A stretch of 34,317 nt of DNA from Clostridia bacterium. Its GTDB lineage: Bacteria; Bacillota; Clostridia; Oscillospirales; CAG-272. The stretch lies in assembly GCA_017935195.1 (NCBI GenBank), contig JAGBIB010000105.1, forward strand, positions 1 to 34,317, written 5' to 3'. The translations under genes were made by a program, and so were the position numbers. Shown here piece after piece: positions 3 through 14,776 of this stretch (positions within the stretch are counted from its first letter, which is position 1; each line of letters opens with the position of its first letter). The notes below the pieces were generated by a model. It did no database searches and was not told where the DNA came from. It saw only the letters and a program-made list of their open reading frames with translations.

Positions 3-3000
3 CTGCTCGATGGTATAGGTCTTGCTTGCGGTTTCGTCGGCGACGATGAGCTTGATCTGCCATTCCTTGTTTACGAGCTTGTCGTAAAGGAGGGCGTTGC
101 TCGACGAAGTGAGGCCGGTGAGGAAGTAGGTCTTTCCGTTCCAGTTCTCAATCTTGGAGTACCAAGCGCCAACGGAAACCTCGTTGTCGATGGTGGTAGG
201 AGCACTATAGCCGGGATAGATGGGATCCATGGGACAGGTAAATCCGCTTGTGGGATCACTGTAATATACGAGAGCTTCACCGTCGTATATCTTGATGGTT
301 ACGGTATATTCAACGCCCTTAACGGGAATGAACTGATTATCACCCTTTCCAAGGCAGGTCTCAAATCTGTAAAGATCGTATTCAAGAGCCTTTGTGGAGG
401 GGGACATGGTGATGGTCTTGTTCTGACTGCCGCCTACGATAGTGATCTTCCAGGTAAGCGCAGTGCTGATATCTACCTTTTCACCATTCAGCTTGATGCC
501 TACAAGAAGCTGTGCTGCCGCATCAAGGTCACCCTTATTGGGGCTATTTCCCCAGTTTTCCCACGCGCCGTACTTGGGCTGGATGGTGATCTTATTATTT
601 ACCACGGTTAGTTCATCTACTACCGCTACCGATGAGGTAACCTCACGGCTTCCGTCATGGGTCACTGCAGTAAGGGAAAATTCACCGCACTTTACTGCTT
701 TGAGAGTAATGCTGTATTCATTTTCAGAAACGATCTGAACTGCTCCCTCGGGATCAACAAGCGTCCAAGTCACTCTCTGATCTGCAAATCTGCTGTTTAC
801 TCTCGAGTAAACCGTGAACTCTGTTCCTGCAAGGATCTGTGAGCCGTCCTTGATATCAAGGGCAACCTCGTTGATCTCGGTGGATTCGTTTTCTCTCCAT
901 ACGGTATCCAGAGGATAAATGGTTACGTCTGCAACGGTGTCACCGCCAACGGAGTACGCCTCCATGCCGATGCTTGCAAAATCGGGAAGAAGGAGCTGTG
1001 AACCGTAGATTTCGCCCTCTCCGACAATGACTTCAATTGAGCCCCAGTCAACGAAAATACGAAGATCAATGGAGCTGTCAGCATTTTCTGTTACCGTATA
1101 CTGACAAGCGAGATTATTTGCATAATCTCCCGGTTTTACATCGGAAACCTTGCCTCTGTTCATGGTCAGAAGCTTGGTTTTGGGATTGTATTTCACAAGC
1201 ATTTCGTAGTTGTTGCCCTTGAAAAGACGGAAGCCTACCTCTGTAACGCTTTCGTCGGGGTCAAGATGGGCAATAAGCTCGTACTGATCGCCGCGGCAGC
1301 CCTCAAGGATATTTTCACCGTTTTCCTTGATGATGGCATCCTTTACGTCAATGAGGGGTGTTCCGCGAAGCGAATTGTACTCTTCAACGGGATTCATGAA
1401 AATACGGAGTCCTTTACTCGTTGATTTGAGTGTCAACTCATAGCAAAGAGTGAGTGTTCCGTTCCAAGGGCTTGTGGGAATGGATTCTGCATAGCTCCAC
1501 GTGTTCATCCAACCGATCATTACAACGCGTCCGCCGGGCGCGTTTTTAAACGTCACACCTGCATAGGAGTCGTTACCGAATTCAAGAGGATAATGGGTGT
1601 TGCTATCGGGAATGTAGCAGATTCTGCCGTCAACTACTTCAAGTTCACCGATCATATACCAAGCACCTGCGCCTGTATAGATCCACTTTACGTTTTCAGG
1701 GTCTCCCTCAACGCTTATGGGGAAAAGATCGGGACATTCCGAATTGATGGCACCGATGCCCGAGGGTCTGTACTCGGGATGGTTACTGTCATAACCGCTT
1801 TCAAATTTCCAATCTATCAGATTTTTAGATGAATATATACGAAGAGGTCCGCCTGCTATGACCATGAGATACGTATTGAGCTGTTCGCACCAGAATACGT
1901 TGGGGTCTCTGAATGCGCTGTCGTTAAGGGGATCATCACTGTTTTTGATTATGGGGTTTTTGGCATATTTTGTCCAGGTGATGCCGCCGTCGGAAGAATA
2001 AGCAAGGCTCTGATCCTGACTGCCCTTAACGTTTGTAAAGTATGCAATAAGATTATCCTTGCTCTTTTCTGCGAAAAGTCCGGATACGTTTTCGGGGTCT
2101 GCAACTGCACTTCCCGACCAGATCGCACCGATCTGGTCGTCGGGGGCGATCGCTACGGGAAGCTCTTCCCAATGCACAAGGTCATCGGATACAGCGTGGC
2201 CCCAATGCATTTCCGAGCCGTTGTGATCTGTTGAATAGGGGATATGCTGGAAGAAGAGGTGCCAACGTCCGTTAAGATAGATCAGCCCGTTGGGGTCGTT
2301 GAGCCAACCCTCTGCGCATGAAAAATGATACTGTCCTCTGTAGTCCTCGGTCTTGAACTCAAGAGCGGAGGGCTGTCTTGATACGGTAACGGTAACGGGA
2401 ATCTCAACGCCTGTTGCTTCATCCTTCAAAACGATGGAAACTGTATTTTTTCCAACGCTTACCGATACCTCTGTGGGTGCGCCGATTTGAACTGTTTTTC
2501 CGTTGATCTTAAGCTCTGCGCTTCCTTCGGCGGATACCGTTATCTTAATGGTCTTGGTTTCATTTGGAAGTGTAGGAAGCGTATATGCGCCCACTTTTTC
2601 CGAAAAAGCAGGGCTGAGTGCCATGCCTTCCACCTCAATATCGGTGATTTTGGCAACCTTCTTGTCGCCAAGATCCGTATAAACGGTATTTTGGAAGGTA
2701 GCTGAGCTGTATTCTGCAGTACCGATACCGAGATATCCGTCGGCATAATAAGAGGGGAGAGTTGCTGAGCATACGGGGATACCGTCTACGTATACGGTAC
2801 AAAGACCGTCGATCACCATTACTCTCATTTTATAAGAAGCCTTATTATACTCAAAGGAATTTCCGTTATTCGTGGATATTGTGGGATATCCCTTGGAAGA
2901 GCTGAAGCAAAACACCTTCGTTTCGCCCTTGTTGGTTCTATCAAGCTTGAAAATAAAGGAGTCCTCTGAGGTGGTGTTTTTTGAGGCACCAAAGATCAGA

Positions 3001-3290
3001 TTTGCCACGTTGCCCTTTGTGAAGGTAACGTCACTTTCAAAGATGAAGTTTCCGTTTGTCTTGGTCTTGCTTATGGCAAGCGCATCGTTTGAAGTGGTAT
3101 AATTAATATTTATACCGCCGTCAACGTACGTAAGCTTGACGGGTTTATTGGTGGTGGAGGCAAGATCTGTAAGATTCGTCTCCCAGTTGTTTTCATCGCC
3201 AAATGAGCCAAATGAACCGAATGAAACAAACTGAACGATACCCAATAACATCGTCATGGAAAGTATCAAGGATGTGATTCTTTTTTTCAT
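3..3290 (-). CDS. Secreted multimodular GH32 (levanase/inulinase/beta-fructofuranosidase-like); partial, runs off left edge
   Basis: Manual translation: ATG at 3290 with AAGGAG SD, signal peptide MKKRITSLILSMTMLLGIVQF, beta-rich N-terminal and cadherin/Ig-like segments, then GH32 motifs YHFS-WLNDPNG, HWGHAVS, WSGSA, FRDPNV, ECPDLF. The frame is still open at position 3. Confidence 0.93.
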   Translation of the reverse strand, partial: MKKRITSLILSMTMLLGIVQFVSFGSFGSFGDENNWETNLTDLASTTNKPVKLTYVDGGININYTTSNDALAISKTKTNGNFIFESDVTFTKGNVANLIFGASKNTTSEDSFIFKLDRTNKGETKVFCFSSSKGYPTISTNNGNSFEYNKASYKMRVMVIDGLCTVYVDGIPVCSATLPSYYADGYLGIGTAEYSSATFQNTVYTDLGDKKVAKITDIEVEGMALSPAFSEKVGAYTLPTLPNETKTIKITVSAEGSAELKINGKTVQIGAPTEVSVSVGKNTVSIVLKDEATGVEIPVTVTVSRQPSALEFKTEDYRGQYHFSCAEGWLNDPNGLIYLNGRWHLFFQHIPYSTDHNGSEMHWGHAVSDDLVHWEELPVAIAPDDQIGAIWSGSAVADPENVSGLFAEKSKDNLIAYFTNVKGSQDQSLAYSSDGGITWTKYAKNPIIKNSDDPLNDSAFRDPNVFWCEQLNTYLMVIAGGPLRIYSSKNLIDWKFESGYDSNHPEYRPSGIGAINSECPDLFPISVEGDPENVKWIYTGAGAWYMIGELEVVDGRICYIPDSNTHYPLEFGNDSYAGVTFKNAPGGRVVMIGWMNTWSYAESIPTSPWNGTLTLCYELTLKSTSKGLRIFMNPVEEYNSLRGTPLIDVKDAIIKENGENILEGCRGDQYELIAHLDPDESVTEVGFRLFKGNNYEMLVKYNPKTKLLTMNRGKVSDVKPGDYANNLACQYTVTENADSSIDLRIFVDWGSIEVIVGEGEIYGSQLLLPDFASIGMEAYSVGGDTVADVTIYPLDTVWRENESTEINEVALDIKDGSQILAGTEFTVYSRVNSRFADQRVTWTLVDPEGAVQIVSENEYSITLKAVKCGEFSLTAVTHDGSREVTSSVAVVDELTVVNNKITIQPKYGAWENWGNSPNKGDLDAAAQLLVGIKLNGEKVDISTALTWKITIVGGSQNKTITMSPSTKALEYDLYRFETCLGKGDNQFIPVKGVEYTVTIKIYDGEALVYYSDPTSGFTCPMDPIYPGYSAPTTIDNEVSVGAWYSKIENWNGKTYFLTGLTSSSNALLYDKLVNKEWQIKLIVADETASKTYTIEQ

Positions 3291-3339: not shown

Positions 3340-4545
3340 TTATAGTTCCTTAAAAACAAGTTCGCCTGTCTCGCAGGCGGTGGCTGCGCGGAAGGTCATA
3401 CATCCGCCATAGCCTCCCATCTCCTTGAAGCCCGTGAATATGATCCTTTCCCCCCACACGGCACCCTTTGGCACGCCCGCACAAGGGATTATGGGCTCTT
3501 TTGGCACCTGCCAAGGTCCAAAAGGCTCTTTTGAAAACAGGTATCGCGCCCTGCCGTATAAGCTATAGATCAAGTAATACCATTCACCGTAGTGAATATA
3601 ATCGGGACATTCGGGCTCTTCGGCGCTGTCGTTTATAAGCATAGGCTCTCCCGTGTCTGTCCAGGTATGAAGATCCGACGATACGAGATGTGCAAGACAG
3701 CCCTTCTGCTCCTTTGAAAGTCTTGTGGTCAAAAGCATATGGAACAGTCCGTCCGAGTCCTTGAATACCTTGGGGTCCCGGGCAGATGAGGGTGTATATC
3801 GCTCGGATATGGTAAATGAAAAGCTACGATCCTTTTCAAAATGATATCCGTCCTCCGAAACACTTCGGCAAATGGGGGCGGGAAGACCTCTGCCCCGTCT
3901 TACCGTATAATAAAGATGCTCTGTTTTTCCATGTGCGATCCACGATCCCGTGCAAATGGAGCCCTCCCAAGGCTCGCTTATCGGTACTGCCATGGGATGC
4001 ACCGCCCAGGTTTTGAAATCTGCAGTGGAGATGTGCTCCCACTGATGGGCTCCAAGTCCCCATTTACTGCCGTGATGGCGGCGATCCTTGAGATACAAAA
4101 CGTGATACTCGTCCTCCCTTCGGTAGGGCATACAGTCTCCGACGAACACCCCGTTGCCGGGGTACCACCCCTCTGCATTTTCAAAGGTGGTTATAACGCT
4201 TGGACTTGCCAAAGGCTCCTCACTGTATTCATCGATTCTAATCTCGGCATCGGAAACAAGGTTGTCCGATAAAGAAAACAACCGTTCGCCGTTAGGCCAG
4301 TCCTCGTCGCGCAGCTCGCCGTTGCGGTAAAGCTCAATTCGGTGATCCATAAGGATTACTTCAAAGCTGTCACCTGCAGAACATTCCGAATGAAGACTCA
4401 AGGGTCGTCTTGCGTAATCATACTGAACGGATACGGTGATATACCCATCAAAAGCTTGTACCTCTAAGGTTTTTCTTCCGCTTTTTATAAAAACCGCATA
4501 CATCGGCATGGCAGATACGCCAAAAGATAGCTTAATCTTATTCAT
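3340..4545 (-). CDS. GH32/clan GH-J five-bladed beta-propeller glycoside hydrolase, cytoplasmic
   Basis: GDCMPY, HQWEH.S.D, ICTGS, ARDPKVF, ECPDY motifs; no signal peptide; SD GGAGG upstream. Confidence 0.85.
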   Translation of the reverse strand: MNKIKLSFGVSAMPMYAVFIKSGRKTLEVQAFDGYITVSVQYDYARRPLSLHSECSAGDSFEVILMDHRIELYRNGELRDEDWPNGERLFSLSDNLVSDAEIRIDEYSEEPLASPSVITTFENAEGWYPGNGVFVGDCMPYRREDEYHVLYLKDRRHHGSKWGLGAHQWEHISTADFKTWAVHPMAVPISEPWEGSICTGSWIAHGKTEHLYYTVRRGRGLPAPICRSVSEDGYHFEKDRSFSFTISERYTPSSARDPKVFKDSDGLFHMLLTTRLSKEQKGCLAHLVSSDLHTWTDTGEPMLINDSAEEPECPDYIHYGEWYYLIYSLYGRARYLFSKEPFGPWQVPKEPIIPCAGVPKGAVWGERIIFTGFKEMGGYGGCMTFRAATACETGELVFKEL

Positions 4546-4557
4546 TTAACCCCTCCC

Positions 4558-6279
4558 TTAACTGTATTTTATAAATTCGGGGAATCCTTCCTCGTACTTT
4601 AAAAGTCCGATTGCAAGTGCCGAGAACAGTGCTGCGCCCGTTGCAGCTTCCTCGGTGATCCTATTAAGAGAAACATCCATTTCAAATCTGTCCTCAATAA
4701 GATTTTTGAACACGGGATTTTTCTTTACAGCCCCGCCCGAAGCAACGACATGGCTCTTTTTTTCGGGGAAGACTGTATATAGCTGGTGCAATTCCTCACA
4801 TATTCCCTTTAAAAGCCCCAAGATCAGTGCGGACGGTGTAAAATTATAGGCGTCGATTCCCTCAATGGAGCCCCTGCAATCAGGGTCCGATCTTTTACCG
4901 TAAAACGAGGTGTTTACCCTTACTCCCCTCTCAGCACCGCTGTACGCCTCCTTTGCAATTTTATTCATTATGCTGTACTGCGGTGTATCTTTCATACCTA
5001 TACTCACGGCGTAGGATCTGAAAAATTTTTCAAGCATCGCGTAAGCGGAGCCACCGCAGAGAGCTGAACCGCACACAAGATATTTCCCTTCAATAAACGG
5101 ACGAAGCTCTATCTCGGGCTGTAACTCACAGTAATCGCTTACCGCAGAGATCTGTGATCCTGTGCCGATATTGATAAGCACGCTGTCACCGATCTGTCTC
5201 ATGGAACCGATAAAGCTTGCCTGATTATCCCCGATGGGTACTGAAATCGATATTCCGTTCCAGCTCCCTATTATCTGAGTGGACGATGTCACCCTTGGAA
5301 CAAGATCCTCTTCAATTCCTAAAATCCGAAGCTTTTCTCTCATAAAGCATCCGTTTTTAATATCAAAAAGACCGATGGCTGCACCAATCGATGTATGAGT
5401 CAGTGCTTCATTCATTCCACATAGCCTCATTGCAAACAGATCCATTATGCTGCAAAAGCCCACTGCGCTCTCGGGAACGAGTCCCCTTTTTAAATTGTAA
5501 TAATGTGTTGCAATGCCATATCCCGTGAAGACGCTTTCGCCCGTGAGCTGCTTGATTTCCTCACATGCAGTCACGCCCCCTTCAAGCACTCTGTCTGCGC
5601 GCTTGTCCTGCCAGTTTATGAGATTTGACACTGCTTTTCCGTTACTGTCAACATACACGATTCCGTGCATCTGCCCTGTAATTCCGATGCTGACGATCCC
5701 CTTGTATGCTTTGATAATGTGGCATAGAAGCTTTTCGGCTTTTTCAAGGATCACATCCACTCTTTGCTCGGAATAATCCTTTGAGGGAATATGGGATCTG
5801 TGAGGCGTTGAATATACCTCCACCTGCTCCTTGCTGTCCATATCCATCACCACCGCGCTGATGGTAGTCGTACCAAGATCTATCCCTACGCACAGCGTTC
5901 CGAATGTAAGCTGTGTTATTTCCTCGCTCTCCGTAAAGATCTTGTTATCTCCTTTTCCACCGTTTATGATCATTGAGGTGATGTTATCGCAGAATTGATA
6001 TTGTTCTGAGTTCTTGCCTTTTTCGTCAAGGATCTCTTTTTTTCTTTTGCTGAGAAGCTCGTCAAGAGAAACTACGCCGCAAAGATAAAGCTTTATATCG
6101 GTTATGGTGATGCCGGCCTCCCTGAAAAGCTTTATTGTTTTTAAGGTGTTGACGTTTTCCTGTGAATAATTTCTGTATCCGTTTTCACTTCTTGATATTT
6201 GGATAAGCCCCTTGGACTCATAAAGTCTGATTGCCTTTTGCGTAAGTCCCGTAAGCTTTTCCACGTCGTTTATCTTCAC
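4558..6279 (-). CDS. MerR-family HTH fused to FGGY carbohydrate kinase (sedoheptulokinase/xylulokinase-like)
   Basis: N-term MKINDVEKLTGLTQKAIRLYESKGLI..NGYRNYS (MerR wHTH); kinase motifs GIDLGTT, ITGQMHG, WQDKR, GDNQAS, NIGTGSQ, SGGAV. GTG at 6279 fits GGAGG spacing better than 6288. Confidence 0.9.
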   Translation of the reverse strand: MKINDVEKLTGLTQKAIRLYESKGLIQISRSENGYRNYSQENVNTLKTIKLFREAGITITDIKLYLCGVVSLDELLSKRKKEILDEKGKNSEQYQFCDNITSMIINGGKGDNKIFTESEEITQLTFGTLCVGIDLGTTTISAVVMDMDSKEQVEVYSTPHRSHIPSKDYSEQRVDVILEKAEKLLCHIIKAYKGIVSIGITGQMHGIVYVDSNGKAVSNLINWQDKRADRVLEGGVTACEEIKQLTGESVFTGYGIATHYYNLKRGLVPESAVGFCSIMDLFAMRLCGMNEALTHTSIGAAIGLFDIKNGCFMREKLRILGIEEDLVPRVTSSTQIIGSWNGISISVPIGDNQASFIGSMRQIGDSVLINIGTGSQISAVSDYCELQPEIELRPFIEGKYLVCGSALCGGSAYAMLEKFFRSYAVSIGMKDTPQYSIMNKIAKEAYSGAERGVRVNTSFYGKRSDPDCRGSIEGIDAYNFTPSALILGLLKGICEELHQLYTVFPEKKSHVVASGGAVKKNPVFKNLIEDRFEMDVSLNRITEEAATGAALFSALAIGLLKYEEGFPEFIKYS

Positions 6280-6300
6280 TTTAAACACCTCCCCATGTCC

Positions 6301-6331
6301 ATTATAAACCCTTACTTAAGGTCAATGTCAA
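6301..6331 (-). promoter_or_regulatory. MerR-type sigma70 promoter with 19-bp spacer and operator dyad
   Basis: Minus strand TTGACA-19 bp-TATAAT; spacer contains CCTTA-N2-TAAGG (6310-6321). Confidence 0.85.
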
Positions 6332-6412
6332 TAGCTTTTTAATTGTTTTTTTGGTTGTTTTTAATATTTTTTTCATTTTTTTTTAAAAACTGCGTTTATT
6401 TTTAAAAAACGG

Positions 6413-6441
6413 TTGACAAGAAAACAATAATATGATATAAG
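6413..6441 (+). promoter_or_regulatory. sigma70 promoter of GH31 gene
   Basis: TTGACA-17 bp-TATAAG with extended -10 TG. Confidence 0.7.
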
Positions 6442-6477
6442 CCATTTATCGATATGTTTTATTTGGAGGACACCGAA

Positions 6478-8412
6478 ATGTCAGTTTATAAAATAAGATA
6501 CGGCACTCCGGAGGATCTTGTGCCTACAAATTTTGCAAGAAAAAGTCTTATCAGCTATAAGTCTTTATCGGAAAATGAGGTTGAAGAAATAAGCTTTAAA
6601 AAAACAAAAAAAGGATGTCTTTTAGAGATTCCTTTAAGGGCTGGCAACGAGGTCTACGGCTTCGGTCTTCAGCTTAAAGGCTTTCGTCAGACAAATCTGA
6701 AAAAGACCATCCGTCCAAATGCCGATCCGATCTCCAACACCGGTGACAGCCACGCCCCGGTTCCTTTTTTCGTTACAACCGATGGCTGGGGGATCTACGT
6801 TGACAGTGCCCGGTATGTTGAGTTCAACTGCGGATATACCAAGGTGACCTCTGCAAGCGATAACTCGAAAGTCGAGCTTAAAACGGATTTTGAAAGTCTT
6901 TACGCTAAACGAGAGAGCGCTTATACCACCGTGCTCACAATTGACGTTCCCTTTGCCGAGGGCGTAGATATATACGTTTTCAAGGGGGAAAGCATCCTTG
7001 ACGCGGTTTGTGAATACAATCTTTTTTCGGGAGGCGGATGTGATGCTTCTCTTTGGGGACTCGGCAATCTTTACAGATGCCATTCGGAATTTACGGAAGA
7101 TCAAGTTCTTGCCATGGCAGAAAAATTCAGAAAGCTCAAGATCCCTTGTGACATTCTCGGACTTGAGCCCGGCTGGCAGTCATGCTCCTATTCAAGCTCC
7201 TTTTGCTGGGATCAGGAAAGATTTCCTAACAAGGAAGATGTGTTGAGACAAATTACGGATATGGGCTTCAAGCTTAATTTGTGGGAGCAGGCATTTGTTC
7301 ACCCTTCAAGCCCGCTTTACGATGCGCTCGTTTCTTATAGCGGAGATTACAAGGTGTGGAACGGTCTTGTGCCGGATTTTGCAACCAAGGGCGCGCAAGA
7401 GATTTTTATAAATCATCACGTCCCCTTTAACACTCTTGGCGTCAGCGGATATAAGCTTGATGAATGTGACGGAAGCGACTATACGGGTCAGTGGACCTTT
7501 CCTCTTTGTGCCGAGTTTCCCTCAGGACTTGACGGGGACCAGTACCACAGCTTGTTTGGTACACTTTTTGCACGCACCATGCTTCAGGTCTTCGGCGAAA
7601 ACAAGACGTTTTCCGAGGTTAGAAATTTAGGTGCGCTTGCCGCTCCGTATCCGTTTGTCCTTTACAGCGACCTTTATGACCACAGAGATTTCATAAGAGG
7701 TGTTGCAAATGCGGGGTTTTCAGGACTGCTTTGGTCGCCGGAGGTGCGCCATGCAAAGAGCCGTGAGGACCTTATCCGCCGCGTACAGACCGTGGTATTC
7801 AGCGTACAATCCCTTATAAATGCCTTCTATCTTGACGATATGCCTTGGATAGAAAAGGAATGTACCGATGAAATCAAACGATTGCTTGAGCTTCGTATGT
7901 CTCTTGTTCCTTATTTGTATTCTGCTTTTTATGACTACAAAACCAAGGGTAAGCCTCCCGTACGTGCTCTGGTTTGTGATTATTCCCGCGATAAGAATAC
8001 CTATAACATATGGGATGAGTACCTTTTTGGTGATGATATGATCGTTGCGCCCATGACCGAAAAGGAAAAAGAGCGCGAGGTGTATTTGCCTGTCGGTACT
8101 TGGTATAATTTCTTTACGGGCGAAAAAATCGAAGGCGGAAACAAGTTCACAGTCAAAACCGATGATATTCCCGTTTTCGTGAAGGAGGGCACGATTCTGC
8201 CCCTTGCGCGTCCCGTACAATATATTACACGGGATACGCAATTTGAAATCACGCTGAACCTGTACGGCGACACCTCAAATACACAAACAAAGCTTATTGA
8301 AGACGATGGTTGTACCTATCATAGCCCTGTACGTGTTCTGAAGATTGATGCTGATACAGATGATCTTGATTCCTTCAGATACCGCATCACGAACAAGAAA
8401 AAGATCATATAA
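6478..8412 (+). CDS. GH31 family glycoside hydrolase (alpha-glycosidase, TIM barrel)
   Basis: YGFG, PVPFF, IPCD, KLDE nucleophile region, LVPYLY, DEYLFGDDMIVAP, VYLP.G.W, IPVFVKEG. ATG at 6478 follows GGAGG. Confidence 0.88.
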   Translation: MSVYKIRYGTPEDLVPTNFARKSLISYKSLSENEVEEISFKKTKKGCLLEIPLRAGNEVYGFGLQLKGFRQTNLKKTIRPNADPISNTGDSHAPVPFFVTTDGWGIYVDSARYVEFNCGYTKVTSASDNSKVELKTDFESLYAKRESAYTTVLTIDVPFAEGVDIYVFKGESILDAVCEYNLFSGGGCDASLWGLGNLYRCHSEFTEDQVLAMAEKFRKLKIPCDILGLEPGWQSCSYSSSFCWDQERFPNKEDVLRQITDMGFKLNLWEQAFVHPSSPLYDALVSYSGDYKVWNGLVPDFATKGAQEIFINHHVPFNTLGVSGYKLDECDGSDYTGQWTFPLCAEFPSGLDGDQYHSLFGTLFARTMLQVFGENKTFSEVRNLGALAAPYPFVLYSDLYDHRDFIRGVANAGFSGLLWSPEVRHAKSREDLIRRVQTVVFSVQSLINAFYLDDMPWIEKECTDEIKRLLELRMSLVPYLYSAFYDYKTKGKPPVRALVCDYSRDKNTYNIWDEYLFGDDMIVAPMTEKEKEREVYLPVGTWYNFFTGEKIEGGNKFTVKTDDIPVFVKEGTILPLARPVQYITRDTQFEITLNLYGDTSNTQTKLIEDDGCTYHSPVRVLKIDADTDDLDSFRYRITNKKKII

Positions 8413-8738: not shown

Positions 8739-8804
8739 ACCTTTGTTTGGTGTATCTTTAAAAAATATAACACAAACTGATAATTTTTCTCGCAAAATGC
8801 GTTG

Positions 8805-8833
8805 TTGATTTCTTGCTTGTTTTATTGTATACT
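8805..8833 (+). promoter_or_regulatory. Putative sigma70 promoter of XRE regulator
   Basis: TTGATT-17 bp-TATACT. Confidence 0.55.
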
Positions 8834-8891
8834 ATGGATGTCGACAGGAGAACGCCCTTGCAAGGCCCAAAAATATTGTTTGGAGGAAATT

Positions 8892-10061
8892 ATGAAACTT
8901 ACAATTGGTGAAAATATCCGCAGATTCCGCAAGAAGAATGATTTAACGCAAGAGGCGCTTGCCGACCGCTTGGGGGTTACGTACCAGTCTGTCAGCCGTT
9001 GGGAAAAGGGAGCTACCTATCCCGATATGGAGCTGCTGCCCGCCATTGCAAGCCTGCTTGAGGTGACGGTCGACGAGCTTTTGGGCGTGCCCTCTATCGA
9101 AAAGGAGAAGCGTGCCGCGGAAGCCTTTGACGAGCTTCGCCGCGAGTGCGTGAAGCGGGACTACGACGCTGAAAAGATCGTAGAGCTCTTACGTGACATC
9201 CGCAGAAACTATCTTGACAGCGACAAGGCGTGGCGTCCTTGGTGCGAGGGGAACAGCAGAGCCTTCCGCGACCCCAAGATCCTGCCCGAGGTGCGTCTGC
9301 TGGCGCAGGCATTTCTTGAACGCCATCCGATGAATCCCCACGTGCTTGAGACCATGGCAGAGATCGAGGACGAGGAGCATCTGCAGCCTTTTCTTGATCG
9401 GTATGCCGCATCCTTCGACTGCTCTCAGCGCGCCTTGCTCTTTGACCGCTATCTGGTGCTTGGGGATGCACAGCGTTTTGAGCCCGAAAGAAGATATAAG
9501 CTTTATAAATCGATCCTTGCGTTCTTTGACACCCGCAACCTGCTGAAGATGGGGGCAAGCAGAGAGGAACGGGAGATGGCAGAGCTTTTCAGAACCCGAA
9601 TGCTCTCGCTGGTGCGCAGTGATGCCGTGGATGAGTGTCCCGATATGTGGGTAGACGAACGTATAGAGTTTGGCTTTTGGGAAAGCGCACTGCTTGCGGG
9701 GAAGGGCAAAAAAGAGGAGGCGATCTCCAACCTTGAAAAGGTGGTCGGTCTGTTAGAAGACACCATGAAGATCACCGAAAAGGTTCTTTTACCCACCTCC
9801 TGCCGCTTCCTTGAGGGGATGGAGGTTTATGCCGAGGAGAGGTGGAGCGACCGTGACAACCATCCCGACAGTCCCGACGAGCGCTTTATCTTCGTGGTTA
9901 CGCACATCGGAAAGATGTGTACCTGCAGCTGCATCTATCCCGCAAACTACAGCGACAGTCTGCACTCGGAATCCTTTGCCTCTTTGAGAGACGACCCCGC
10001 ATTTGAAGTACTTTGCGATAGGGTAAAGGCGCTGATTTTAACAAGACCCAAGCAAGCTTGA
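8892..10061 (+). CDS. XRE-family HTH transcriptional regulator with long helical C-terminal domain
   Basis: IGENIRRFRKKNDLTQEALADRLGVTYQSVSRWEKG.TYPD; ATG 8892 after GGAGG. Confidence 0.88.
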   Translation: MKLTIGENIRRFRKKNDLTQEALADRLGVTYQSVSRWEKGATYPDMELLPAIASLLEVTVDELLGVPSIEKEKRAAEAFDELRRECVKRDYDAEKIVELLRDIRRNYLDSDKAWRPWCEGNSRAFRDPKILPEVRLLAQAFLERHPMNPHVLETMAEIEDEEHLQPFLDRYAASFDCSQRALLFDRYLVLGDAQRFEPERRYKLYKSILAFFDTRNLLKMGASREEREMAELFRTRMLSLVRSDAVDECPDMWVDERIEFGFWESALLAGKGKKEEAISNLEKVVGLLEDTMKITEKVLLPTSCRFLEGMEVYAEERWSDRDNHPDSPDERFIFVVTHIGKMCTCSCIYPANYSDSLHSESFASLRDDPAFEVLCDRVKALILTRPKQA

Positions 10062-11470: not shown

Positions 11471-13858
11471 TTATTTTGCAGAATTGATATAGCCTTTGAT
11501 CTCCGAAACGCCCACATACTTCTTGTAGTCCTTGCCGTCGCTGACCACCAGAGTGGGAGCCTGCATAATGCCGTAGGACTTGGCAAGAGCGGCGTGCTCG
11601 TTTGCCAGCAGCTTTTCAAAGCCGATACCTGCCTTTTCAAGCATGGGTACTGCGATCTTGCAGTTGGGGCAGGTGGCGGTGGTGAAGAGGATGGTTCTTG
11701 CCTCCTCCTCGGCCTGCATAATGGGAGTAGCGTCTGCGGGCGCTTCCTCTGCCGCCTTCTTGGGGGCACCGTGCTTTAAGACGGAGGTCTCGATCACGTA
11801 CTCCTTGCGGTGCTTGAACTCCTGAGACTTGCCCGCGTTCCAGTTCTGAACGGGACGGTAGTAGCCGGTGATTCTGGAGTAGACCTCGGTCTTCTTGCCG
11901 CACTTGGGGCAGGTGTATTCCTCGCCCGAGATGTAGCCGTGCTCACTGCACACAGAGTAGGTGGGAGAGAGGGTATAGTAGGGCAGAGAATAGTTTTCCG
12001 CAATCTTTCTTACCAGATTTGCCGCTGCCTGCCAGTCGGTCACCTTCTCGCCCAGGAAGGCGTGGAAGACGGTACCCGAGGTGTAAAGGGTCTGCAGCTC
12101 GTCCTGAATATCCAGTGCATCGAAGATGTCGCTGGTGTAGGATACGGGCAGGTGGGAGGAGTTGGTGTAGTAGGGGGTGTCGCCCTCGTTCTTGGCGGCG
12201 GTGATGATGTTGGGGAAGCGGGCAACGTCGTGCTTTGCAAGACGGTAGGAGGTGGACTCTGCGGGGGTCGCCTCCAGGTTATAAAGGTCACCGTACTGCT
12301 CCTGATAGTCGGACAGGCGCTCTCTCATGTGATTGAGCACATCCTTGGTGAACTGCTGAGCGCTTTCGTGGGTCAGATCCTTATGGAGCCACGATGCATT
12401 CAAGCACGCTTCGTTCATGCCGACAAGACCGATGGTGGAGAAGTGGTTTGCAAAGCTTCCGAGATAGTGCTTGGTGTAGGGGTAAAGTCCCTCTTCAAGG
12501 AGCTTGGTGATGATGGTTCTCTTGACCTTCAGGGATCTTGCGGCAATGTCCATCATCTTGTCAAGTCTCTTGTAGAATTCCTCGGGAGAGGAGGACAGGT
12601 ATGCAATTCTGGGCATATTGATGGTGACAACGCCCACCGAACCCGTGGACTCACCCGAGCCGAAGAAGCCGCCCGACTTCTTTCTCAGCTCACGCAGGTC
12701 AAGACGGAGTCTGCAGCACATGGAACGAACGTCCGAAGGCTCCATATCCGAGTTGATATAGTTGGAGAAATAGGGAGTACCGTACTTGGCGGTCATCTCA
12801 AAGAGCAGCTTGTTGTTTTCGGTCTCCGACCAGTCGAAGTTCTTGGTGATGGAGTAGGTGGGGATGGGATACTGGAAGCCTCTGCCGTTGGCATCGCCCT
12901 CGATCATGACCTCGATAAAGGCCTTGTTGACCATATCCATCTCAGCCTGGCAGTCGCCGTAGGTGTAGTTCTGCTCCTTGCCGCCCACGATTGCGGGCTG
13001 ATCCTTCAAGTCTGCGGGCACCGTCCAGTCAAGGGTGATGTTGGAGAAGGGTGCCTGGGTACCCCAACGGGAGGGGGTGTTCACGCCGTAGATGAAGGAT
13101 TCAATGCACTTCTTTACCTGATCGTAGTTCAACTGATCGTACTTGACGAATGCGGCAAGATAGGTGTCGAAGGAGGAGAATGCCTGCGCGCCCGCCCACT
13201 CGTTTTGCATGATGCCAAGGAAGTTGACCATCTGGTTGCAAAGGGTTGCCAGATGCTTTGCGGGGGCGGAGGTGATCTTGCCGGTCACGCCGCCAAGACC
13301 CTCTTTGATCAGCTGCTTCAACGACCATCCTGCACAGTATCCGGTAAGCATTGCCAGGTCGTGGAGGTGAATGTCGGCGTTGCGGTGTGCGCCTGCGATC
13401 TCCTCGTCGTAGATCTCGGACAGCCAATAGTTTGCGGTGATGGCACCGGAGTTGGAGAGGATCAGACCGCCCACCGAGTAGGTAACGGTGGAGTTTTCCT
13501 TTACTCTCCAGTCAAGGTCCTTTACGTAGGAGTCTACCACTGCCTTGTAGTCAAGGTAGGTAGAGTTCATGTTTCTGATCTTTTCTCTCTGCTTACGGTA
13601 AAGGATGTATGCCTTTGCCACGTCGTCGTAGCCTGCCTTGATCAGCACCGTTTCCACGCTGTCCTGAATATCTTCCACGCTGACCTTGCCGTCCTTGACC
13701 TTGGTGGCGTAGTCTGCGGTCACCTTCAGCGCCAGCAGATCGATGATATCGTCGTTGAATTCCTTGCTCTGTGCTTCAAATGCCTTCTTGATGGCTGCAG
13801 AGATCTTGGAAAGGTCAAAGTTTGCAACCTTACCGTCTCTTTTCACTACCTGATACAT
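11471..13858 (-). CDS. nrdD: Anaerobic (class III) ribonucleoside-triphosphate reductase with N-terminal ATP cone and C-terminal glutaredoxin-like domain
   Basis: VVKRDG ATP cone, HLHDL, SMCCRL finger loop, EATPAE, CSEHG/CPKC Zn site, YSRITGYYRP glycyl radical loop; C-terminal LFTTATCPNC...QAPTLVV. Confidence 0.95.
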   Translation of the reverse strand: MYQVVKRDGKVANFDLSKISAAIKKAFEAQSKEFNDDIIDLLALKVTADYATKVKDGKVSVEDIQDSVETVLIKAGYDDVAKAYILYRKQREKIRNMNSTYLDYKAVVDSYVKDLDWRVKENSTVTYSVGGLILSNSGAITANYWLSEIYDEEIAGAHRNADIHLHDLAMLTGYCAGWSLKQLIKEGLGGVTGKITSAPAKHLATLCNQMVNFLGIMQNEWAGAQAFSSFDTYLAAFVKYDQLNYDQVKKCIESFIYGVNTPSRWGTQAPFSNITLDWTVPADLKDQPAIVGGKEQNYTYGDCQAEMDMVNKAFIEVMIEGDANGRGFQYPIPTYSITKNFDWSETENNKLLFEMTAKYGTPYFSNYINSDMEPSDVRSMCCRLRLDLRELRKKSGGFFGSGESTGSVGVVTINMPRIAYLSSSPEEFYKRLDKMMDIAARSLKVKRTIITKLLEEGLYPYTKHYLGSFANHFSTIGLVGMNEACLNASWLHKDLTHESAQQFTKDVLNHMRERLSDYQEQYGDLYNLEATPAESTSYRLAKHDVARFPNIITAAKNEGDTPYYTNSSHLPVSYTSDIFDALDIQDELQTLYTSGTVFHAFLGEKVTDWQAAANLVRKIAENYSLPYYTLSPTYSVCSEHGYISGEEYTCPKCGKKTEVYSRITGYYRPVQNWNAGKSQEFKHRKEYVIETSVLKHGAPKKAAEEAPADATPIMQAEEEARTILFTTATCPNCKIAVPMLEKAGIGFEKLLANEHAALAKSYGIMQAPTLVVSDGKDYKKYVGVSEIKGYINSAK

Positions 13859-14077: not shown

Positions 14078-14776
14078 TCAAATTCCACGCAGGGACACCC
14101 TTTTGGCGTAAGGCGTCAGATGGGGAAGGAAGGTGCGGAGCGCCTCCTCGTCATAGCCCGTCACGGTGGGGTCAAGCACCGTTTCCCCGGCCTTAAATGC
14201 CTGTAAATACCAGCTTTCCGCTCCCTTGATCAGCTCGCCCGCGCCTATGAGAGAGTCAAGATCGTGGAAGGAGCGGGTGACGGTGGTGCGGAATTCGTAG
14301 GGCGTCTGCCCCCTCATTAAAAGGTCGATGGAGGTTAAAACGGGGGCAAGGTCGAAGCGTTCCACGCCCACCGTTTGCCCGTAGCGCTCGGCTGAATTTT
14401 TGATGTCCATTGCCACGTAGTCCGCTGCCTCTGCCTCAAGGACCTTCAAAAGAGCGTCGGGTCTTGTGCCGTTGGTGTCAAGCTTTGTTTTGAAGCCCAT
14501 TTTTTTGATTTTCAAAAGGAAGTCGGCAACCCCCTCCTGCAAGAGGGGCTCGCCCCCCGACAGGCAGACGGCATCAATCTTCTTTTTTCTGCCTTCAAGA
14601 AAATAGAAAAGATCGTCAAGATCGATGAAGGTGGGCATTTCCTCGTCCTTGCCCGTGACTAAGGAGGAGTTGTGGCAGAAGGGACAGCGCATATTGCACC
14701 CGGGGGTAAAGAGGGTGGTGGCGATGAGTCCGGGGTAGTCTACCATGGAAAGCTTTTGAATGCCCTTGATGATCAT
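14078..14776 (-). CDS. nrdG: Anaerobic RNR activating radical SAM enzyme
   Basis: SMVDYPG, CNMRCPFCHN, SGGEP, LDTNG, AMDIK, EFRTT; adjacent to nrdD. Confidence 0.92.
   Translation of the reverse strand: MIIKGIQKLSMVDYPGLIATTLFTPGCNMRCPFCHNSSLVTGKDEEMPTFIDLDDLFYFLEGRKKKIDAVCLSGGEPLLQEGVADFLLKIKKMGFKTKLDTNGTRPDALLKVLEAEAADYVAMDIKNSAERYGQTVGVERFDLAPVLTSIDLLMRGQTPYEFRTTVTRSFHDLDSLIGAGELIKGAESWYLQAFKAGETVLDPTVTGYDEEALRTFLPHLTPYAKRVSLRGI

Follow-up and report, generated by a model that had tools for sequence, protein, structure and literature searches.

MerR-family regulators are textbook activators that work by distorting promoter DNA, and the signals they are known to answer are metals, drugs, oxidants, light or B12, and nitrogen status. 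In the copA promoter controlled by CueR and in mer promoters, the centre of the operator dyad lies near position 8 of the spacer. In ROK regulators such as NagC, Mlc and Bacillus subtilis XylR, a DNA-binding domain is joined to a sugar-kinase (ASKHA) fold, which senses the sugar of the operon under control. Trigger enzymes such as PutA, BirA and NadR hold a metabolic active site and a DNA-binding domain in one polypeptide and control their own pathway, a concept said to come from Commichau and Stuelke; we know of no trigger enzyme in which a MerR head is joined to a sugar kinase. A large autonomous domain behind a MerR winged helix-turn-helix (wHTH) is also found in CarH and LitR, and CarH is a light-sensing repressor that acts via tetramerisation. 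Here we analysed a 34,317-nt stretch of DNA (contig JAGBIB010000105.1, hereafter the window) from a metagenome-assembled genome (MAG) of a Clostridia bacterium, in which one gene fuses a MerR wHTH to a complete FGGY sugar kinase. The fusion is probably a sugar-responsive, self-regulating one-component activator-kinase of the MerR type, with an FGGY domain that is intact in its motifs.

The fusion gene lies on the (-) strand at 4558..6279 and is translated from a GTG at 6279 into 573 aa plus stop, with no internal stop. An alternative GTG at 6288 gives a frame of 576 aa (4558..6288). Because homologues start with MKINDVEK in an alignment of 38 sequences and a Shine-Dalgarno sequence GGAGG (6289..6293) is located 9 nt upstream of GTG 6279, the latter is the likely start; residue numbers below refer to the 576-aa frame. 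The wHTH (residues 5-69, 6082..6276) is matched by Pfam MerR_1 (E 2.4e-17, 63.2 bits, cut-off 21.6) and Pfam MerR (E 3.7e-10, 39.9 bits, cut-off 28.2), and its closest solved relatives are CueR structures (E 3.4e-12, residues 4-64). Two predicted helices (residues 75-89 and 95-108, 5965..6066) occupy the position of the MerR dimerisation helix, and a variable linker (residues 109-131, 5896..5964) with a semi-conserved FTExEE stretch leads into the FGGY kinase (4612..5892). The latter contains FGGY_N at residues 133-344 (E 2.6e-26, 93.2 bits, cut-off 28.8) and FGGY_C at residues 372-559 (E 2.9e-9, 37.4 bits, cut-off 27), and by sequence its closest solved relative is 3gbt, a Lactobacillus gluconate/xylulose-type FGGY kinase (E 2.7e-13, residues 133-562). 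No ROK (PF00480) match was found in the fusion protein by Pfam at E ≤ 0.01. Thus an earlier reading of this DNA from sequence only, which had described one uninterrupted open reading frame (ORF) with a MerR wHTH and a full FGGY kinase carrying DLGTT, GQMHG, GDNQA and GG motifs, agrees with translation, Pfam and alignment, and by its sequence the protein belongs to both the MerR and the FGGY families.

With CueR, MerR, BmrR and SoxR the fusion shares the wHTH and a promoter with near-consensus hexamers, a 19-bp spacer and a dyad near spacer position 8. Unlike them, it has as effector part a complete enzyme of ∼445 aa rather than a metal loop or a GyrI-like or TipAS drug domain, its dimerisation helix is predicted as two helices, and its presumed signal is a carbohydrate; equivalog models, among them those of CueR, ZntR, MerR and SoxR, stay far short of their cut-offs with this protein. 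The ROK regulators resemble it in joining a DNA-binding domain to a sugar-kinase fold, but its kinase is FGGY, its head is MerR instead of a MarR-like wHTH, its catalytic residues are kept, and its promoter type points to activation and not to operator-blocking repression. In the manner of trigger enzymes, the fusion polypeptide would carry a metabolic active site together with a DNA-binding domain and would control its own pathway. CarH is among the sequence matches of the fusion head (E 1.7e-4); in contrast to CarH, the C-terminal domain here is an enzyme, and the 19-bp-spacer promoter argues for MerR-style activation.

The same architecture recurs widely. A database search gave 1638 relatives at E ≤ 1e-5, and among the best 120, for which the architecture was checked, MerR and FGGY_N were present in 120 and FGGY_C as well in 115; one cluster among them holds 19 sequences of 576 aa at 98% identity, and the named relatives were deposited as ‘MerR family transcriptional regulator’ from Clostridia and Ruminococcaceae MAGs. 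When only residues 1-132 were used as query, 105 proteins were found and FGGY was present in 104 of them. The 150 best representatives from a library clustered at 50% identity include 38 whose alignment begins at residue 1-6, and 32 of these are full length with 36–57% identity; the five full-length representatives checked by Pfam all have MerR, FGGY_N and FGGY_C. Species-representative genomes yielded 38 loci, all in gut MAGs of Oscillospiraceae, Eubacteriales or Clostridia, with the MerR part present in 30, absent from seven and cut by a contig end in one; locus counts out of 39 below are these 38 plus the window. When 401 genomes were sampled evenly across the order, a relative at E ≤ 1e-40 was found in 31; five of these are fused (the window's genome counted), one is degenerate and 25 are unfused. 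Because the architecture is found in all 120 best relatives, in 30 species-level genomes and in 32 full-length representatives, the fusion is real, old and conserved and is not an assembly chimera; hence the possibility, raised from the sequence alone, that it is unique to this assembly is ruled out. MerR-FGGY proteins form a sizeable family among MAGs of gut Oscillospiraceae/Eubacteriales. An independent DNA run (X9) gave no contigs across 5550-6340 and is uninformative on the junction.

The candidacy of the fusion as a new regulator-enzyme has two sides: a search of the open-access literature for MerR with FGGY, carbohydrate kinase, sugar kinase or GH32 returned no description, and the proteins themselves are not rare but form a family already held in databases. 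The sequence family is thus public under a generic name, and the regulon, the promoter, the partner gene and the pattern of domain loss are what is newly recognised. Some relatives depart from the common form. P0104 (654 aa), a fused relative, has at its C-terminus an extra partial PfkB match, which looks like a partial or read-through fragment. In P0145 (422 aa), whose MerR head is 45% identical, ∼350 residues without an assigned domain replace FGGY. A 36%-identical MerR-FGGY gene in a genome of the same family as that of the window (L057, G278:C3) is preceded by TTGACC-19-TATAAT; its linker is interrupted by an in-frame stop and its kinase by a frameshift, GH32-like remnants follow, and it looks like a decaying copy.

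The AlphaFold2 monomer, computed from the 38-sequence input, is confident as one body, with a mean predicted local distance difference test score (pLDDT) of 89.8 and a predicted template modelling score (pTM) of 0.88. The order along the chain is wHTH, the two helices, the lower-confidence linker (pLDDT 71–77 vs ∼90 elsewhere) and the kinase. A conserved S/E-G-K-N-S turn breaks the two helices, and its Gly is present in all 32 fused rows of the alignment. The coiled coil proposed to follow the wHTH is thus predicted, in the monomer model, as two helices in the expected place and not as one long helix. Foldseek with the fusion model returned FGGY kinases only (best 3gbt/3ll3, E ∼1e-28), with a TM-score of 0.79 to 3gbt when normalised to the target. 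Complex prediction with two copies of residues 1-132 scored 0.15 against a mark of 0.42, a result that says nothing either way.

The fusion gene is preceded by a MerR-type promoter at 6301..6331 on the (-) strand, which consists of a -35 element TTGACA (6331-6326), a 19-bp spacer TTGACCTTAAGTAAGGGTT (6325-6307) that holds a putative operator, and a -10 element TATAAT (6306-6301); the long spacer and the dyad between -35 and -10 are the hallmarks of MerR-type promoters, whose spacers are of 19–20 bp. A dyad had been noticed at 6301-6331 from the sequence alone: CCTTA-N2-TAAGG is indeed present, inside the spacer, and the interval itself is the whole promoter. A standard sigma-70 scan with spacers of 16–18 nt found no promoter for the fusion gene in 6289-6453, as expected for a 19-bp spacer. 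The same layout, namely TTGACA (or TTGACT), exactly 19 bp and TATAAT or a near variant, is found in all 30 other fused loci with upstream DNA, at a distance of 11–72 nt from the start codon, and it is absent from all seven unfused kinase loci. Conservation of this promoter in 31/31 fused loci fits a self-activating regulator-enzyme. Within the spacer, the core T-N2-CC-N3-GG-N2-A is symmetric about position 8: among 30 unique sites, positions 2/14 are T/A and positions 5/11 are C/G in all 30, positions 6/10 are C/G in 29, and 18 sites have a complementary pair, either A/T or C/G, at positions 4/12. Moreover, the seven loci with a CCCC/GGGG-type core all have TKK, (D/E)RGL and YRDY in the recognition-helix region, whereas the other loci have T-x-K, SKGL and YRNY.

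We built a weight matrix on the 31-nt promoter-operator site, with the upstream sites of fused genes as training sites, and scanned the 2.0-Mb, 78%-complete MAG, in which the promoter of the fusion gene (44.3 bits) is the sole match above 14 bits. In 752,663 b of related loci, 44 matches above 22 bits fall into three classes, namely the training sites upstream of fused genes, ten untrained second copies downstream of the gene c0 that follows the kinase gene (see below), and two divergent copies in one locus (L056). The ten second copies are at L002:12984, L007:12960, L008:5382, L009:7916, L011:4611, L013:12959, L027:14508, L028:10674, L033:12967 and L035:12964; all but that in L027, which is farther downstream, lie 14–52 nt after c0. 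Nine of the ten are directed at a gene that encodes a secreted BspA-type leucine-rich-repeat (LRR) protein whose middle part is rich in Cys, and the tenth reaches the end of its locus. Because these second promoters face LRR genes, the regulon would reach beyond the operon of the regulator itself. Together, the scans suggest a dedicated regulon of the fusion regulator, with one site in this MAG.

Duplicated sites of other kinds were also seen. In L056 (7786-7851, genome G013), the two promoter-operator copies are identical and divergently oriented, with a GC-rich hairpin between them, and the contig ends just beyond. L007 has a tandem duplication upstream of the fused gene (9899 and 9952), and by eye L008, L011 and L013 have a second, more degenerate upstream copy that scores below 22 bits.

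The kinase alignment comprises 32 fused and 6 unfused sequences, and the motifs of an active FGGY kinase are kept in both kinds. The phosphate-1 motif D137-L-G-T-T (DxGTT), G205-Q-M-H-G209, N-W-x-D-x-R, G353-D354-N-Q-A357, the phosphate-2 motif G375-T376-G377 and S517-G518, which includes the first Gly of the adenosine GG motif, are invariant in 38/38 sequences, and G519 is at least 90% conserved. D354, which we take to be the catalytic base as in GlpK and XylB, aligns with the conserved Asp of 3gbt. The unfused kinases of the same clade, automatically named ‘sedoheptulokinase family’, are 34–58% identical over the kinase and have the same invariant motifs; they lack the MerR head and the MerR-type promoter, and the closest of them (∼58% identical) share c0, which is directly downstream of the kinase gene in five of seven unfused loci. 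In a careful maximum-likelihood tree of 52 kinase domains, from which L033 (frameshift), L037 (truncation), L041 (no motif anchor) and L045 (miscalled ORF) were left out, the unfused orthologues are scattered among the fused ones. The tree requires six changes between the fused and the unfused state, of which well-supported branches impose at least five, and none of 200 bootstrap trees can be explained by a single change. By this tree the MerR head was repeatedly lost or, less parsimoniously, gained, while the pair of kinase and c0 persisted. This turnover beside a persisting pair argues for catalytic work of the kinase in the pathway, and from its sequence the FGGY domain of the fusion looks like a working enzyme.

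The partner gene c0 (3340..4545, (-) strand) starts 12 nt after the stop codon of the fusion gene and encodes a predicted cytoplasmic GH32-like enzyme of 401 aa. It is directly downstream of the kinase gene in 33/39 loci, with a gap of -26 to +38 nt, and two of the six loci without adjoining c0 end within 300 nt of the kinase gene. Pfam Glyco_hydro_32N matches c0 with E 2.4e-17 (63.9 bits, cut-off 22.1), over profile positions 18-193 only. The nucleophile D137 (in VGDCMPY), R256-D257-P258 and E312-C313-P314 are invariant in 32/32 sequences, and a profile match to the GH32 structure 6r3r (8e-20) aligns the Asp, RDP and EC motifs. The model of c0 (pLDDT 91.8) is an N-terminal beta-sandwich followed by a five-bladed propeller, and its best fold match is again 6r3r, the Bacteroides endo-levanase BT1760 (Foldseek 5.7e-17); the extra beta-sandwich is N-terminal in c0, whereas it is C-terminal in typical GH32 enzymes. 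A five-bladed propeller with the nucleophile Asp, RDP and EC motifs is what defines GH32. No signal-peptide-like N-terminus was seen in c0 by eye.

From these observations the following course of events can be proposed. A dimer of the fusion would occupy the T-N2-CC-N3-GG-N2-A pseudo-palindrome within the spacer of its own promoter, which at 19 bp is over-long, and, like a classical MerR activator, would hold this promoter at low activity as long as no sugar is bound. On sugar binding, with ATP or without it, the kinase domain would close, and this movement may be relayed through the helical neck to the MerR heads, which would realign the -35 and -10 elements by distorting the DNA, and the operon would be switched on. 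Its output would be the regulator-kinase and a cytoplasmic GH32-like beta-fructofuranosidase, to which a secreted GH32 would be added in this genome; roughly one relative in three would also express the secreted LRR protein from a second, identical promoter. The kinase may phosphorylate the monosaccharide freed by c0, most simply fructose or a close ketose. In a stronger form of this proposal, flux through the FGGY cleft, with closure on substrate and ATP, sets the geometry of the MerR promoter, so that the fusion would be the first carbohydrate-gated MerR regulator and its kinase a new FGGY specificity, namely 6-phosphorylation of a ketohexose or hexose released by c0; we regard this stronger form as somewhat doubtful as a whole.

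Several points weigh against the activator-kinase reading. DNA binding, the ligand, the activity of the kinase and whether regulation is positive or negative are all deduced from sequence. The long dimerisation helix expected of a MerR protein is modelled as two shorter helices with a conserved break, and the variability of the linker (residues 109-131) could weaken allosteric coupling. The site of the window is itself the exception at spacer positions 6/10, and palindromy per site is modest (a mean of 4.5 of 7 pairs, vs 3.4 ± 0.85 in shuffles). Because whole-site palindromy only modestly exceeds that of shuffles, the case for an operator rests on the conserved symmetric positions and the 19-bp spacing; co-variation of the operator with the recognition helix is limited to one clade and counts as one event. 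No c0 follows the fused gene in L015 or in G013 (L056, 50% identity). The other PfkB and ROK kinases of the MAG mean that a dedicated fructokinase role is not forced. Metatranscriptome contigs from three libraries (three studies) match c0 and both parts of the fusion, MerR and kinase, at ≥99% identity, which is consistent with expression of the fusion and c0; these contigs are 151–279 nt long and show no transcription start, and DNA carry-over is possible.

These points lead to other explanations. The broken dimerisation helix and the variable linker would suit an autoregulation that is independent of ligand or of the repressor type, either as feedback of the protein on its own level or by CarH-like release on ligand, with no DNA distortion, and large-domain MerR proteins such as CarH do repress through oligomerisation. 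Strict 19-bp spacing with near-consensus hexamers, in 31/31 loci and at 12 further untrained sites, is characteristic of activation by realignment, and a plain repressor needs no defective spacer; we therefore hold this explanation to be unlikely. It is also conceivable that the kinase fold serves only as a sensor, so that FGGY binds the sugar as an effector without turnover in vivo and another kinase phosphorylates it. Mlc and NagC are precedents among ROK regulators, and the MAG encodes five PfkB and three ROK matches, although neither these counts nor that of GH32 allow an inference about substrate. We consider a pure sensor distinctly unlikely, since fused and unfused members alike keep every ATP, Mg and catalytic motif without variation, and unfused orthologues with the same c0 partner, nested among the fused ones, are hard to explain in this way.

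The effector itself may differ from the sugar released by c0 and be the phosphorylated product, the ATP/ADP state or an imported oligosaccharide, in which case the protein would report flux or energy rather than the presence of substrate; this would refine the activator-kinase model and not replace it. FGGY kinases bind sugar and nucleotide and close on both, and sequence data do not separate these ligands; we give such an effector a small chance only. Finally, a chimera of the assembly or a recent deletion that joined two genes has a negligible chance in view of the shared architecture in all 120 best relatives, which come from several sources, in the 30 species-level genomes and in the 32 full-length representatives, down to 36% identity.

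If the activator-kinase reading is right, a sugar kinase as effector module would extend the MerR mechanism to carbohydrate metabolism, and a natural system would couple enzyme turnover and transcription in one chain. The fused and unfused orthologues, separated by at least five changes of state, are ready-made controls. Moreover, the 31-bp promoter is compact, highly conserved and apparently orthogonal (one site per genome), and is a candidate sugar-inducible switch for Clostridia. The stretch is present in bovine and other gut metagenomes from at least seven studies, and the family is common in uncultured Oscillospiraceae of the ruminant and human gut, in which it marks an uncharacterised GH32-like pathway.

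Concerning the substrate, none of the curated FGGY equivalogs of NCBIfam (XylB, GlpK, GntK, FucK, RhaB, AraB and LsrK) accepts the fusion. The best score is that of XylB (121.4 bits vs a cut-off of 380.25), followed by GlpK (75.3 vs 590.35) and GntK (75.3 vs 648.55), with the others lower. The kinase had been called sedoheptulokinase-like from the sequence alone, and this name agrees with the automatic name ‘sedoheptulokinase (family protein)’ of the nearest ESM-Atlas clusters (cosine 0.99), which is its sole support and a lead only, but not with any curated equivalog. We also examined 17 loci of more distant unfused kinases (34–45% identity), in which 43 of 94 neighbour ORFs were run against Pfam. 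A PFL-like glycyl-radical enzyme adjoins the kinase in eight of the 17 loci, frequently accompanied by a radical-SAM activase and a cupin that resembles mannose-6-phosphate isomerase (MPI), and P0203, P0254 and P0266 are fusions of the kinase with an MPI cupin. Because the partner of the fusion is GH32-like and MPI-like cupins stand beside or are fused to kinases of the sister clade, the simplest guess is that the substrate would be a hexose or ketohexose phosphorylated at a primary hydroxyl, such as fructose, mannose or a close relative. Since the distant kinases are located beside a glycyl-radical enzyme, an activase and a cupin, substrates may differ within the clade. The gene set itself is seen at L043, L046-L051 and L053 (same order), where kinases 35–40% identical to that of the fusion are accompanied by a radical-SAM activase, a PFL-like glycyl-radical enzyme, an MPI-like cupin and sometimes a GH38 alpha-mannosidase, and judged by its genes it looks like an uncharacterised glycyl-radical sugar pathway.

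The fusion gene had been proposed to head an operon with two GH32 genes and to be divergent from a GH31 gene. Regarding the former, c0 is the conserved partner, whereas the large GH32 downstream of it belongs to a cluster (c7) found in only two of the 38 other loci (L025 and L037). This large GH32 (3..3290, (-) strand, 1096+ aa) has cadherin-like, GH32N and GH32C domains by Pfam and a signal-peptide-like N-terminus, and runs off the window. It starts 49 nt beyond c0, no scanner-grade terminator was found in this gap, and it is probably co-transcribed with c0 in this genome only. A terminator-like hairpin at 3379-3363 was considered as a separator of the two genes and rejected, for it sits inside the end of c0. 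The two genes are the only GH32 matches in the MAG. As for the GH31 gene (6454..8412, (+) strand, by Pfam), the divergent orientation was correct, but GH31 neighbours the kinase in one of the 38 other loci (L004) and has no operator-type site in the weight-matrix scan of the MAG, and so is not part of the conserved unit. By eye, a standard promoter with a 17-bp spacer (TTGACA ... TATAAG) precedes GH31 at 6415-6443 (+), and an ATG near 6489 with a ribosome-binding site suggests that GH31 starts later than at its first ATG, 6454.

Across loci, the other neighbours are variable glycoside hydrolases, LRR proteins and, in six loci, an EamA-type transporter. This EamA/DMT-type transporter (cluster c2) is near a fused or unfused kinase in six of 39 loci (L001, L007, L009, L026, L027 and L030) and directly divergent from the kinase gene in two of them; it is a candidate sugar importer, and the window contains none. 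An XRE-type HTH_3 protein with a long C-terminal, tetratricopeptide-repeat-like part is encoded in the window at 8802-10061 (+). Proteins of this type recur near L029, L031, L036, L055 and L006, and their genes are upstream of four unfused kinase loci, possibly as a replacement regulator. Farther away in the window, an anaerobic ribonucleotide reductase, NrdD (11471-13858, (-)), has a thioredoxin/glutaredoxin-like tail at its C-terminus, to which the matches are weak (E 1.4e-4 and 1.3e-3) and below Pfam cut-offs, and a radical-SAM gene that resembles the activase of NrdD is located at 14078-14776.

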